A stretch of DNA of 11,612 nucleotides from a virus: the UHGV virus genome UHGV-1980575, one strand, 5' to 3'. Positions 4,516 through 11,612 of the stretch are shown here, piece by piece; within the stretch, counting starts at the first letter, position 1; every line of letters starts with the position of its first letter. Both the position numbers and the translations under genes were made by a program. The notes beneath the pieces are model-generated. The model saw nothing but the letters and a program-made list of their open reading frames with translations, made no database searches and had not been told where the DNA came from.

Positions 4516-4986
4516 ATGACAAAATCATGGAGCGTACCTTTTTCTGAATCAGAAACTGAACATGATGGAATGCCTGTTTTCTGGAGATTCCAGGCGACAG
4601 TTGAAGAAGATGGGATAAAAATATTCGCACTTCAATATATAGCTTTTCATCAGACAGAGCATTATGCATGGTTGGTTCCTGCGCATTGGATTGTTAATTT
4701 TAAACCAGCACCAAATCAGTGGTTACAGGAATGGAAACAAAGGAGAAATAGATATGCAATTAAGAAAGTAGCAAAAAATGCAGAAAGATCTTTTGCATTC
4801 CCAACGAAGAAACTTGCTATTGAAAGTTTATTGCGCCGGAAGAAATACCATTTAATGAGAATAAAACAAGATTTGGCTGTTGTATCAACTCTTGTTGATG
4901 GGATGAAAAATATTGATACATCAACACCAGATATTGAATATAACTTTGGACACAACCAAGAAACAGAAAATTGGGTATTTTATTAG
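4516..4986 (+). CDS. Hypothetical protein (156 aa), AT-rich orphan gene in the N-cIII accessory slot
   Basis: GAGGTGAG is 2 nt upstream of the ATG, directly after the N stop. Codon composition is visibly far more AT-rich than the flanking genes. No family recognised. Confidence 0.55.
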   Translation: MTKSWSVPFSESETEHDGMPVFWRFQATVEEDGIKIFALQYIAFHQTEHYAWLVPAHWIVNFKPAPNQWLQEWKQRRNRYAIKKVAKNAERSFAFPTKKLAIESLLRRKKYHLMRIKQDLAVVSTLVDGMKNIDTSTPDIEYNFGHNQETENWVFY

Positions 4987-5017: not shown

Positions 5018-5129
5018 NNNNNNNNNNNNNNNNNNNNNNNNNNNNNNNNNNNNNNNNNNNNNNNNNNNNNNNNNNNNNNNNNNNNNNNNNNNNNNNNNNN
5101 NNNNNNNNNNNNNNNNNNNNNNNNNNNNN
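5018..5129. other. Assembly gap (run of 112 N)
   Basis: Literal n characters in the sequence; every ORF crossing it in the six-frame track is an artefact. Confidence 0.99.
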
Positions 5130-5603: not shown

Positions 5604-6311
5604 ATGGATTTGAACAAATTCGATGAGCCATTCAGCCCTGAAGATATCGAATGGCGAATACAGCAAAGCGGTAAAACACGCGATGGCAAGGTGTGGGCTA
5701 TGGTGCTGGCTTATGTCACGAACAGGGCAATCATGAAACGCCTGGACGATGTTTGCGGCAAAGCAGGATGGCGCAATGAATACCGCGATATTCCCAACAA
5801 CGGCGGAGTTGAATGCGGCATATCAATCAAGATTGATTCCGAATGGGTAACCAAATGGGATGCTGCTGAAAACACGCAGGTAGAAGCCGTCAAAGGTGGT
5901 CGTTCCGGTGCAATGAAGCGTGCTGCCGTTCAGTGGGGAATCGGTCGGTATCTGTATAACCTTGAGGAAGGTTTCGCACAAACATCTCTCGATAAAAAGC
6001 AGGGATGGCACAGGGCAAAACTGAAAGATGGAACAGGATTTTACTGGTCCCCTCCATCGCTGCCGGGATGGGCAATGCCAGCATCTGGCAATCAACCATC
6101 ACCAGAAAATACCAACCAGAAATCTCCATCGGTTGACTGCGAACAAATCCTGAAAGACTTCAGTGATTATGCTTCGACAGAAACTGACAAGAAAAAACTC
6201 ATAGAACGTTATCAGCATGACTGGCAATTAATGGCTGGCAATGAGGATGCGCAGGCTAAATGCGTTCAGGTAATGAACATCAGAGTTAACGAACTAAAAC
6301 AGGCGGCATAA
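5604..6311 (+). CDS. Single-strand annealing recombinase (Rad52/Erf-like superfamily)
   Basis: 235 aa; the N-terminal core (YVTNRAIMKRLDDVCGKAGWRNEY, GVECGISI) resembles Rad52-fold annealing proteins. Sits in the bet/erf position immediately upstream of ssb. GAGGTG upstream of the ATG. Confidence 0.65.
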   Translation: MDLNKFDEPFSPEDIEWRIQQSGKTRDGKVWAMVLAYVTNRAIMKRLDDVCGKAGWRNEYRDIPNNGGVECGISIKIDSEWVTKWDAAENTQVEAVKGGRSGAMKRAAVQWGIGRYLYNLEEGFAQTSLDKKQGWHRAKLKDGTGFYWSPPSLPGWAMPASGNQPSPENTNQKSPSVDCEQILKDFSDYASTETDKKKLIERYQHDWQLMAGNEDAQAKCVQVMNIRVNELKQAA

Positions 6312-6818
6312 ATGGCAAGCAGAGGCGTAAATAAGGTGATTATCCTTGGTCGGGTAGGACAAGACCCGGAAGTTCGATACTCACCATCAGGAACAGCGTT
6401 CGCTAACCTGACAATAGCCACGTCAGAACAATGGCGAGATAAAAATACTGGCGAGCAAAAGGAATTGACTGAATGGCATCGTGTTGCTGTATCCGGGAAA
6501 CTGGCTGAGGTCGTGGGGCAGTATGTGAAAAAAGGTGATCAGATTTATTTCGAGGGAATGCTGAGAACCAGAAAGTGGAAAGACCAGTCAGGACAAGACC
6601 GTTACACAACCGAGGTTCATGTCGGAATTAATGGCGTGATGCAAATGCTTGGCGGCATTGGCGACAGCAAACAACAAGCAGCCAGCAGGCAATCACAGAA
6701 GCCACAGCAGCAATCATCACCAGCACAACACAACGAACCTCCGATGGATTTTGACGACGATATACCCTTTGCACCAGTAACTCTCCCCTTCCCTCGTCAC
6801 GCTATTCACGCAATTTAA
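6312..6818 (+). CDS. ssb: Single-stranded DNA-binding protein with a 15-aa C-terminal extension
   Basis: OB-fold N-terminus ([37 protein letters not shown]), Gln/Pro-rich linker and the acidic motif [11 protein letters not shown], followed by [15 protein letters not shown] before the stop. The ATG directly follows the SSAP stop (TAAATG). Confidence 0.9.
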
Positions 6819-6826
6819 GGACTTAC

Positions 6827-7375
6827 ATGAATCACTTGATGGTTGACCTTGAAACAATGGGCAACGGGCCATACGCGCCAGTTATTTCTATTGGGGCAGT
6901 ATTCTTTGACCCGAATACCGGAGAAACAGGAGAAGAGTTCTCGGTAAATATCTCGCTTGAGTCATCAATGCGATATCGGGCGCGTCCTGACGCTTCAACG
7001 ATTTTATGGTGGCTGGAACAGAGTGAAGAAGCCAGAAAATCGCTAACCAGCAACACTCAGGAGCTTTCAACGGCTCTTTCATGGTTATCTGAATTCATCA
7101 TAAAGAACGCTAACCACAAATTCGTTCAGGTTTGGGGGAATGGAGCATCATTTGACTGCGTTATTCTCCGCAACAGTTATTCGCTGACAGGGCAGCCAGT
7201 TCCGTGGCAGTGGTGGAATGACCGCGACGTAAGAACAATCGTCGAACTTGGGAAGGTAATAGGATTCGACCCTAAGCGAGATATGCCATTCAAAGGAACT
7301 CGCCACAACGCGCTTGATGATGCCATTCACCAAGCAAAATACGTTTCAGCGATCTGGAAAAAGTTAGCTAAATAA
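6827..7375 (+). CDS. DEDDh-type 3'-5' exonuclease (DnaQ-like fold)
   Basis: Motifs MVDLET (Exo I), WGNGASFD (Exo II) and HNALDDA (Exo III with His). AAGGA upstream of the ATG. Confidence 0.75.
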   Translation: MNHLMVDLETMGNGPYAPVISIGAVFFDPNTGETGEEFSVNISLESSMRYRARPDASTILWWLEQSEEARKSLTSNTQELSTALSWLSEFIIKNANHKFVQVWGNGASFDCVILRNSYSLTGQPVPWQWWNDRDVRTIVELGKVIGFDPKRDMPFKGTRHNALDDAIHQAKYVSAIWKKLAK

Positions 7376-7391
7376 TCAACAGGAGAAAACC

Positions 7392-7685
7392 ATGCCAGCG
7401 CCTCTGTATGGTGCGGATGACGCGCGCCGCTGTTCCGGCAATTCCGTATCGGAGGTGCTGGATAAATTCAGAAGAAACTACGATCGGATAATGTCGCTAC
7501 CACAGGAAACGAAAGAGGAAAAGGAATTTCGCCACTGTATATGGCTTGCAGAGAAAGAAGAACGCGAGCGAATTTACCAGACATCAATCCGACCATTCCG
7601 CAAAGCCACATATACCCACTTCCCTGAAATTGACCCGCGCCTGCGTAATTACCGCTCACGCTATGGCGCTATCAGTAATGACTGA
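7392..7685 (+). CDS. Hypothetical protein (97 aa)
   Basis: AGGAG is 8 nt upstream of the ATG; co-oriented within the early-left operon. No family recognised. Confidence 0.6.
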   Translation: MPAPLYGADDARRCSGNSVSEVLDKFRRNYDRIMSLPQETKEEKEFRHCIWLAEKEERERIYQTSIRPFRKATYTHFPEIDPRLRNYRSRYGAISND

Positions 7686-9891: not shown

Positions 9892-10092
9892 ATGCAACAC
9901 GAACTACAACCTGATTCACTGGTTGATTTGAAATTCATCATGGCTGATACTGGCTTTGGTAAAACCTTCATCTACGACCGGATTAAGTCCGGCGACCTGC
10001 CTAAAGCCAAAGTTATCCACGGTCGAGCAAGATGGTTATATCGTGACCATTGTGAATTCAAAAATAAGCTCTTAAGCCGCGCCAATGGGTAA
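9892..10092 (+). CDS. torI: AlpA/TorI-family excisionase (recombination directionality factor, 66 aa)
   Basis: Winged-helix AlpA-type pattern (FIMADTGFGKTFIYDRIKSGDLPKAKVIHGRARWLYRDHCEFKNKL). Length and position next to an argW-like att core match TorI of the KplE1 (CPS-53) prophage; the sequence itself is not remembered, so the symbol rests on context. Confidence 0.65.
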   Translation: MQHELQPDSLVDLKFIMADTGFGKTFIYDRIKSGDLPKAKVIHGRARWLYRDHCEFKNKLLSRANG

Positions 10093-10619: not shown

Positions 10620-11612
10620 TTATATTGCTGAAGGTACTGGCGTTTCCATCACTATTTGCTCACGTTTTTTACTCAGGAAGAAAATGCCAAATAGCAACAT
10701 CAGGCAGACAATACCCGAAATTGCGAAAAAAACCGTCTGGTAGCCTGCGTGGTCAAAGAGTATCCCAGTCGGCGTTGAAAGCAGCACAATCCCCAACGAA
10801 CTGGCAATTTGAAAACCAATCAGAAAGATCGTCGACGACAGGCGCTTATCAAAATTTGCCACGCTGTATTTGAAGACGGATATGACACAAAGTGGAACCT
10901 CAATGGCATGTAACAGCTTCACTAATGAAATAATCCAGGGGTTAACGAATAGCGCGCAGGAAAGGATACGCAACGCCATAATCACAACACCGATAAGTAA
11001 TGCATTTTTTGGCCCTACCCGATTCACAAAGAAAGGAATAATCGCCATGCACAGCGCTTCGAGTACCACCTGGAATGAGTTGAGATAACCATACAGGCGC
11101 GTTCCTACATCGTGTGATTCGAATAAACCTGCATAAAAGACAGGAAAGAGTTGTTGATCAAAAATGTTATAGAAAGACCACGTCCCCACAATAAATATGA
11201 CGAAAACCCAGAAGTTTCGATCCTTGAAAACTGCGATAAAATCCTCTTTTTTTACCCCTCCCACATCCGCCGCTACGCACTGGTGTTCCTGATCTTTAAA
11301 ACGCATGTTGATCATCATAAATACAGCGCCAAATAGAGAGACCAACCAGAAGTTGATATGGGGACTGATACTAAAAAATATGCCAGCAAAGAATGCGCCA
11401 ATAGCATAGCCAAAAGATCCCCAGGCGCGCGCTGTTCCATATTCGAAATGAAAATTTCGCGCCATTTTTTCGGTGAAGCTGTCAAGCAAACCGCATCCCG
11501 CCAGATACCCCAGACCAAAAAAGAGCGCACCCAGAATTAAACCTACAGAAAAATTGCTTTGCAGTAACGGTTCATAAACGGTCCGGTCAAGACCAAGATG
11601 AAACTCATACAC
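10620..11612 (-). CDS. cscB: LacY-family oligosaccharide:H+ symporter (MFS), host gene, N-terminus cut by the window edge; probably sucrose permease
   Basis: About 50 percent similar to LacY across the visible 330 aa (FNRVGPKNALLIG vs LacY INRIGGKNALLLA; FEYGTARAWG vs FEFGRARMFG). Context next to an argW att core fits the csc locus of sucrose-positive E. coli. Symbol is context-based. Confidence 0.6.
   Translation of the reverse strand: MYEFHLGLDRTVYEPLLQSNFSVGLILGALFFGLGYLAGCGLLDSFTEKMARNFHFEYGTARAWGSFGYAIGAFFAGIFFSISPHINFWLVSLFGAVFMMINMRFKDQEHQCVAADVGGVKKEDFIAVFKDRNFWVFVIFIVGTWSFYNIFDQQLFPVFYAGLFESHDVGTRLYGYLNSFQVVLEALCMAIIPFFVNRVGPKNALLIGVVIMALRILSCALFVNPWIISLVKLLHAIEVPLCVISVFKYSVANFDKRLSSTIFLIGFQIASSLGIVLLSTPTGILFDHAGYQTVFFAISGIVCLMLLFGIFFLSKKREQIVMETPVPSAI

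Follow-up and report, generated by a model that had tools for sequence, protein, structure and literature searches.

The acidic tip of a phage ssDNA-binding protein (SSB), normally its last residues, was found to lie inside the protein: the sequence DDDIPF (residues 148–153) is followed by 15 more residues, and this extension recurs as a conserved peptide across a large family of phage and prophage SSBs. The gene occupies 6312–6818 (+) of the window (the whole 11,612-nt stretch of virus genome UHGV-1980575 that was analysed) and encodes 168 amino acids. Its OB-fold domain (residues 1–112, 6312..6647, +), to which DNA binding and tetramerisation are assigned by prediction, is matched by Pfam SSB PF00436 over residues 6–104 (E=1.6e-36), and an AlphaFold2 monomer model places a confident beta-barrel at residues 7–112. 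There follow a Gln/Pro/Ser-rich linker, predicted to be disordered (residues 113–142, 6648..6737, +), the acidic SSB-Ct tip (residues 143–153, 6738..6770, +), the extension of 15 codons (residues 154–168, 6771–6815, +) and a TAA stop (6816–6818, +); pLDDT is <50 from residue 114 to the end, tail included. The NCBIfam model TIGR00621 scored 166.9 bits (cut-off 53.95), and its profile stops exactly at F153, in agreement with the initial annotation, which had described an internal tip and 15 residues beyond it. By its OB fold (PF00436, TIGR00621 and AlphaFold2), and by a disordered linker leading into an acidic DDDIPF tip, the protein is an SSB of bacterial type, but one in which the tip Phe, F153, is not the C-terminal residue.

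The window comes from a lambdoid/P22-like prophage, of which it spans the immunity and early-left region. Directly 5′ of the SSB gene is a gene for a Rad52/Rad22-family single-strand annealing protein (5604..6311, +; Pfam PF04098, E=5.1e-26), the stop of which abuts the SSB ATG. On the 3′ side, a ribosome-binding site, AAGGA (6817–6821, +), overlaps the SSB stop and serves a gene with its ATG at 6827, encoding an Rv2179c-like (DnaQ-type) 3′–5′ exonuclease (6827..7375, +; Pfam PF16473, E=2.9e-73), after which comes the gene for the anti-RecBCD protein Abc2 (7392..7685, +; Pfam PF11043, E=1.9e-62). Together these four genes make up a recombination module of the lambdoid early-left operon, of a kind described for lambdoid phages in a survey of such modules, which names the lambdoid SSB type SSB-1 and states that its members have yet to be studied by experiment (PMC12315714). 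Other phages have the same tail ahead of a different junction, with an abc2 gene next in line in place of the exonuclease gene. One gap in the assembly falls within the window, as a run of N from 5018 to 5129.

The extension is far from peculiar to this genome. Comparison of a 519-nt query at the nucleotide level recovered end-to-end matches, extension included, from independently sequenced phages at 99% identity (mEp235, mEpX2 and HK75), 89% (epsilon34, g341c and NM-3), 73–75% (ECP1 and HZ41) and 72% (CP-1639), and on translation epsilon34, ECP1, CP-1639 and a DH5alpha prophage proved to have the identical 15 residues. Complete E. coli genomes gave a match in 412/5426 cases, and one with ≥80% query cover in 299/5426; the tailed SSB is present in roughly one of every 18 of these genomes, and also in a prophage of DH5alpha, a laboratory strain. 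In a collection of 5.8 billion proteins, the extension was present in 112 of the best 120 homologue clusters, some of the tail-bearing clusters having 588–1030 members and the set deriving from Klebsiella, Citrobacter, Enterobacter, Salmonella, Kluyvera, Phytobacter, Pluralibacter and others. The window allele itself is ordinary and common.

Such a distribution leaves next to no probability that the extension is due to faulty sequencing or assembly of this one genome, or to a pseudogene recently made in it by a frameshift. The assembly is admittedly imperfect, as the run of N attests, but the same extension, which the initial annotation had suspected of being a sequencing error, recurs in at least nine phages sequenced independently of one another and in E. 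coli genomes by the hundred; many finished genomes of independent origin contain the ORF unchanged or almost so, and its frame is intact. There is indeed a TAA in the +1 frame at 6778–6780 (+), after g-cac-cag, from which it had been supposed that a 1-nt indel could have created the extension. Such a shift, however, would give a protein ending ...IPFHQ and so would not restore the canonical ...IPF end, and the related SSB genes that do end in IPF owe that end to an HNH gene of ~470 nt inserted at that place and not to an indel. A programmed frameshift that exposes the tip was also considered and rejected: at ATA CCC TTT GCA, neither a −1 nor a +1 slip puts a stop directly after Phe.

The tail is conserved in sequence as well as in presence. 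The enterobacterial form, here termed class 1, follows directly after IPF and has the pattern [AS]P[VILA][TG]L[PQM][FY]P[RS]H.[IV][HY].[IL]; the window tail is its modal sequence, and variants across genera include APVGLPYPRHCIYLI, APIGLQFSRHSIHAI and SPVGLQYGKHRVYAL. In an alignment of 48 extended homologues with 68–90% identity to the window SSB, P155 and L158 were invariant and A154, P159, F160, R162, H163 and I168 were conserved at ≥90%; in the tip, F147, P152 and F153 were invariant and D148–I151 conserved at ≥90%, while the linker was highly variable. The conserved tail residues are spelled by several synonymous codons each (four for A154, P155, L158 and R162, three for P161), and those of the tip likewise by many. 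Nei–Gojobori estimates from 23 unique canonical-scaffold genes gave dN/dS values of 0.11 for the OB fold, 0.31 for the linker, 0.011 for the tip and 0.175 for the tail. For 30 unique class-1 tails from all scaffolds pS was 0.71 and dN/dS 0.13, with synonymous sites saturated. Part of the sequences behind the codon counts and both sets of estimates had been picked by patterns fixing the tip and first tail residues, so that conservation at those positions is inflated. These data show that purifying selection acts on the tail peptide. Conservation of the DNA or RNA itself, as a functional element, was considered and set aside, as a search of the window against Rfam returned no match and the peptide is kept with diverse codons. 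The position of the tail in a disordered region (pLDDT <50) is what would be expected of a short linear motif, and the AlphaFold2 monomer model showed no confident contact between tail and OB fold, pLDDT being <50 there.

That related phages share the extension under purifying selection makes it a conserved variant and no lesion, an outcome which the initial annotation had itself named as refuting its reading. An inactivated protein, which the initial annotation had entertained, is very unlikely, given both that selection and the presence of the tail in viable phages, carriers including the phi80-like prophage of DH5alpha, epsilon34 and HK75. It is somewhat more probable than otherwise, as part of the explanation we consider best, that the window SSB is an intact and functional member of a large phage/prophage SSB clade.

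Extended tips are not confined to this clade, nor to one type of protein. Scans of viral contigs and of contigs from one genome per species, in which ...DDDIPF followed by a sense codon was sought, yielded at least 194 distinct proteins with an internal DDIPF and an extension of 1–25 aa among the de-duplicated matches listed; AP stood right after the Phe in 93/135 extended matches, again among those listed. The class-1 tip and tail were found on canonical SSBs with the PF00436 OB fold, on a divergent PF00436 OB fold (MAINTITISGNVGKD...), on phrog_743 ‘SSB’ proteins of ~245 aa without a Pfam match, and on one phrog_4477 protein. Comparison of these proteins shows tip and tail to be a portable module, shared among three or four unrelated ssDNA-binding scaffolds.

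Other tails differ in sequence. A Pseudomonas tail has the form AP[LM]HHL[AN]GA (for example APLHHLAGA), and 9/9 named genomes among the matches listed for it were Pseudomonas. A second enterobacterial form is [ILM]GFGYGxx[RK]xAI[HY]A[IL], and further classes include xDPYRGARSLLI, HGKxGAGVSWRAM and, in Vibrio, RDTFARGARTAYACS. Short tails (APAWLI, APEWR and APCM) were also seen, as were single-residue caps (N, D or G) after the Phe. Judged by their genomes of origin, the tail classes are lineage-specific. Host-restricted phage gene pools would by themselves predict that tail class tracks host lineage, and such tracking does not prove a host target. A partner encoded next door was sought and discarded, no consistent neighbour gene having emerged across the occurrences of a tail class: one tail class is found with many different upstream and downstream gene clusters, so that no adjacent gene is obvious as a cognate partner.

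In some close relatives of the window, tip and tail belong to different genes. The match to the window SSB gene is split by ~450–470 nt in Sf6, IME10, N7, Huey, CurroJimenez and several E. coli prophages. In these genomes the SSB ends at ...DSDIPF or ...DDEIPF, and an HNH ORF of 155–159 aa starts 9–15 nt after the SSB end, the inserted gene sitting, in terms of the window allele, precisely after F153 and before P155; codon A154 (6771..6773, +) is, by junction alignments, the site of the stop and HNH gene in the sister phages. The HNH ORF has no stop of its own and uses the last 14 SSB codons (P155...I168) and their stop, with the result that the HNH proteins of Sf6 and Huey end in these 14 residues. 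Collinear sister genomes (Sf6, Huey, IME10, N7 and the E. coli prophages L009 and L010) identify the window as the HNH-free counterpart. Huey differs from the window SSB gene by one mismatch in nt 1–431 and by ten in nt 432–461, and the Huey junction is thus an abrupt cassette boundary at which the tip has been recoded. In Klebsiella phage phiKp_30 the HNH copy is decayed, with both ends kept, while in ES18 and its relatives an unrelated, T7-gp7.7-like HNH gene follows an SSB that ends in IPF. Homing, although putative, has indirect signs in the recoded flank, in the decaying phiKp_30 copy and in an HNH gene after a Vibrio phage SSB gene. PGAP omits the HNH ORF beside the SSB gene, and the Sf6 annotation went no further than recording that 14 contiguous residues of gp26 also occur in an ‘E. 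coli SSB’.

Two histories could give rise to this arrangement. Either the HNH gene was inserted into a gene that already had the extension, or the tail is a scar, left when an HNH gene was deleted and the SSB was fused in frame to the nuclease's last 14 codons, in which case it would be functionless and conserved at the DNA level. The sharing of the 14 residues with the HNH ORFs of Sf6 and Huey, the decay in place of the phiKp_30 gene and the sharp boundary in Huey all accord with a scar. So does the 45-nt tail block, in which E. coli/Salmonella phages hardly differ in nucleotide sequence and which within that set has a dS of 0.26, compared with 1.2–1.5 elsewhere in the gene (~5-fold lower). 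Against it, the tail is foreign to the nuclease family: the phrog_2340 profile runs out at residue 143 of Sf6 gp26, HNH homologues recovered by tblastn from 533 phage records mostly align only to ~residue 133 of 155, and the closest outgroup HNH, that of Vibrio phage vB_VpP_1 (48% identity), is directly preceded by an SSB with a terminal DDDIPF and itself ends ...EWHAENGEGKNAK, without the tail. Tails of the same class on other scaffolds show heavy synonymous divergence with the peptide conserved, AP-initiated tails exist in Pseudomonas, in other lineages and on scaffolds that showed no nuclease of this kind, and no simple deletion between HNH-containing junctions yields IPF-A-PVTL. A deletion scar was rejected as the main explanation on the strength of the tail-less profile, homologues and outgroup and of the breadth of tails, and we regard it as most improbable.

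Since the tail is absent from the HNH profile, homologues and outgroup, and AP tails occur elsewhere, the extension is ancestral and the HNH insertion derived. The comparisons show an extension that predates the HNH gene, and a window that carries the uninterrupted, HNH-free allele. The low dS of the tail block indicates that part of the local identity comes from recent recombination or homogenisation and not from selection on the peptide, and is attributed to such exchange around the HNH site, a hotspot; this homogenisation is a second phenomenon atop the cross-genus conservation of the peptide. The HNH polymorphism, moreover, supplies near-isogenic natural pairs, for example the window/mEp235 type and Huey.

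What a residue beyond the tip does to an SSB is known from E. coli, where the addition of a single Gly (SSB+Gly) abolished DnaG binding, severely impaired chi binding and slowed growth (PMC3632105), and where an SSB with a C-terminal GFP had no detectable ExoI binding and was dominant-negative from a plasmid (PMC7293020). Whatever follows the Phe, these experiments show, canonical docking is lost, and the extended SSBs would be disabled likewise, those with one-residue caps included. The length of the tail and its class-specific conservation make a positive function likely too, either as a second linear motif or as a degron. We favour, by a modest margin over even chances, a bipartite disordered C-terminus in which an acidic tip is joined to a lineage-specific terminal peptide that caps the tip and engages another partner. 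With its Phe no longer C-terminal, the tip would be unable to dock canonically in the pockets of chi, DnaG, ExoI and other partners, and the phage SSB could coat phage recombination and replication intermediates without calling in the proteins that interact with host SSB; the tail would be an additional short linear motif, by which a different partner is recruited, probably a host-lineage-specific or common phage factor. Altered partner recruitment, which the initial annotation had offered alongside error and inactivation, thus survives and is strengthened by the conservation of the tail, through which binding would take place, and that annotation as a whole is partly supported.

Two observations sit awkwardly with a capped tip. 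The internal tip is still very strongly conserved, which would be surprising were it merely disabled; it would have to act still, and may do so by binding a partner from its internal position, by an intramolecular contact with its own OB fold, or once processing has exposed it. In addition, Sf6, Huey and ES18 are viable phages with tail-less SSBs, and under laboratory conditions at least the tail can therefore be done without. As to a possible partner, the beta-clamp motif (QL[SD]LF/QLxLx[LF]), which binds the clamp cleft, has hydrophobic residues at positions 2, 4 and 6 and usually Gln at position 1. The P[VI][TG]L[PQM][FY] portion of the class-1 tail presumably resembles this hexapeptide, fitting at positions 2, 4 and 6, with Pro and not Gln at 1; the Pseudomonas tail APLHHLAGA, by our reckoning, does not fit it.

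The nonpolar, basic-flanked ends of the tails invite a different reading, in which the tail is a C-terminal degron for ClpXP, ClpAP or a similar protease and keeps the phage SSB, and the tailed HNH nuclease, short-lived. Hydrophobic or small residues close almost every tail class (...RHAIHAI, ...HLAGA, ...SLLI, ...WRAM). Known ClpX C-terminal signals, in which the last residues and a free carboxylate confer degradation by ClpXP, include ...KKAI of MuA and ...LAA of ssrA, and in E. coli nonpolar C-termini destabilise proteins; ...RHAIHAI and ...HLAGA bear what we take to be a loose resemblance to such signals (MuA-like RRKKAI and ssrA-like LAA). A short life could be useful because a phage SSB could poison host replication, and the dominant-negative behaviour of over-expressed capped SSB (PMC7293020) gives a reason to limit its level. 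All 15 residues are conserved, however (P155, L158, P161, H163 and I165 among them), far beyond the need of a terminal degron, and one-residue extensions (N, D, G) cannot serve as such; we consider a degron unlikely, while giving it more weight than the other alternatives to a capping peptide with a partner of its own.

Less probable still, and to be doubted, is a removable pro-peptide, trimming of which to ...DDDIPF-COOH would let the tip act canonically. This would account for an internal tip conserved as in cellular SSBs, and the prevalence of AP after the Phe in the matches listed (93/135, as above) might be a processing mark, but other classes start with M, D, I/L, R or G in place of AP, and conservation extends over the whole tail, more than a leaving group would call for. 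We know of no cytoplasmic protease of F|AP specificity.

The rule that a bacterial-type SSB ends in ...DDDIPF-COOH underlies models of how replisome and repair factors are recruited, and also the design of recombineering tools in which annealing proteins are matched to SSB tails. Here a large natural SSB family, and an experimentally tractable one, departs from the terminal-tip rule, and does so in conserved fashion. The full-text literature available without subscription yielded no account of natural SSBs extended past the tip, and the available portion of the survey of lambdoid recombination modules makes no mention of the extension (PMC12315714). The tail is apparently an undescribed second motif and, as a class, apparently an unrecognised deviation from the textbook rule; PGAP and curated SSB models class tailed proteins as ordinary SSBs. 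A broader proposition can be put forward tentatively, and with rather less than even confidence: that in many proteobacterial phages and prophages a short lineage-specific motif caps the SSB tip, ends host docking and recruits another hub or a protease, with the HNH gene, in lambdoid phages, toggling the capping by insertion at the boundary of tip and tail. If true, phages would have here a general means, overlooked until now, of insulating or redirecting their ssDNA intermediates. Were the cap to block docking and the tail to recruit, a new layer of phage ssDNA control would come to light, along with a new interaction hub, and it would become clear why some phage SSB/annealase pairs behave unlike host SSB.

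Among known systems, the chromosomal SSB of E. coli is like the window SSB in its OB fold (PF00436/TIGR00621), its disordered Gln/Pro-rich linker and the sequence of its tip, but in the E. coli protein the Phe is last, a terminal position needed for docking, where the window SSB adds 15 conserved residues. SSB+Gly and SSB-GFP, in which residues are added after the terminal Phe, are the only experimental analogues found (PMC3632105, PMC7293020); they are artificial and loss-of-function, whereas the window SSB is natural and its appended peptide conserved. Sf6 gp27/gp26 and the SSB/HNH pair of Huey, from lambdoid SSB-1 recombination modules (PMC12315714), have the same recombination module, SSB family and 14-aa peptide in the same place as the window, except that in them the HNH gene parts tip from tail, the SSB ending at IPF and the nuclease bearing the tail. 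This arrangement recalls the free-standing HNH homing endonuclease genes of phages in its presence or absence at one precise site, its recoded flank (10 changes in 30 nt), its decaying copies (phiKp_30) and a homologous HNH gene after a Vibrio phage SSB gene; it differs from them in that the ORF, for which homing is putative, is stop-less and borrows the last 14 codons of its host gene. Further parallels are phage ssDNA-binding proteins with a C-terminal hexapeptide that recruits the phage's own recombination or replication partner: T7 gp2.5 and the SSB of HK620 (HkaK), of which the hexapeptide NDYPPF recruits the phage's own partner, with Sak4 (PMC5928155). Both of these have one motif only, with the aromatic residue at the very end, whereas the window SSB combines an internal motif with a second one.

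The boundary between the acidic tip and the C-terminal tail of the SSB, at window 6771–6773, is the exact site of a presence/absence polymorphism for an HNH homing-endonuclease gene, as seen by locus comparison. The gene lies at the tip/tail junction in comparison loci L003 (1975–2463) and L005 (1963–2445), and also in prophages of two RefSeq E. coli genomes (L009 and L010), where the 159-aa HNH ORF is intact and was left unannotated by PGAP. Two divergent types of HNH, one Sf6-type and one Huey-type, use this one junction.

The 45-nt block encoding the tail (window 6774–6818) was near-identical in nucleotide sequence to its counterparts in L001–L005, while the remainder of the SSB genes was 11–28% divergent; in the SSB gene comparison, dS was 0.26 for the tail block versus 1.2–1.5. 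Between the window and these loci the gene 3′ of the block differs, being either an exonuclease gene or abc2, so that the block behaves as an independent mosaic unit or as a boundary sequence. A 51-aa ORF on the minus strand (window 6717–6872) overlaps the tail block, and merits mention only because synonymous divergence there is unusually low; it is an open frame without evidence of being a gene.

Endonuclease genes also follow ssb in other phages. In Vibrio phage vB_VpP_1 (L012, 925–1926), a homologue of the HNH protein with 48% identity is encoded directly 3′ of a canonical SSB ending DDDIPF*, suggesting that the HNH family of this junction targets the ssb 3′ flank across distant phages. 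ES18-like phages carry an endonuclease of an unrelated, T7-gp7.7-like HNH type in the same post-SSB position (2310–2831 in ES18, L006; 2334–2831 in L008), so that different endonuclease genes appear to share a hotspot at the ssb 3′ terminus.

Elsewhere in the window, the early-left operon contains an assembly gap of 112 N (5018–5129), flanked by an ORF at 4516–4986 and by genes upstream of the annealing protein gene. Near the prophage end lies a 66-aa excisionase-like ORF (MQHELQPDSLVDLKF..., 9892–10092), which we take to resemble TorI; a torI gene is annotated at the matching position in L009. Next comes a truncated ORF on the minus strand (10620–11612), from its sequence a putative membrane transporter. 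Neither an integrase gene nor a tRNA gene was found within the window, and the integrase is thus presumably at the other prophage end.

The acidic tip of the SSB, joined to a class-1 tail, also forms the C-terminus of a PHROG family 4477 protein of unknown function (~393 aa; L040, 408–480, on a 145,964-nt viral contig), which by Pfam is not an OB-fold SSB. Shorter extensions occur in natural SSBs with one residue past the tip (DDDIPFN*, ...D* or ...G*; L145, L146, L157, L162, L164, L165, L173, L218 and L224), and these single-residue-capped proteins are the counterparts of SSB+Gly, the engineered loss-of-docking mutant of E. coli SSB.
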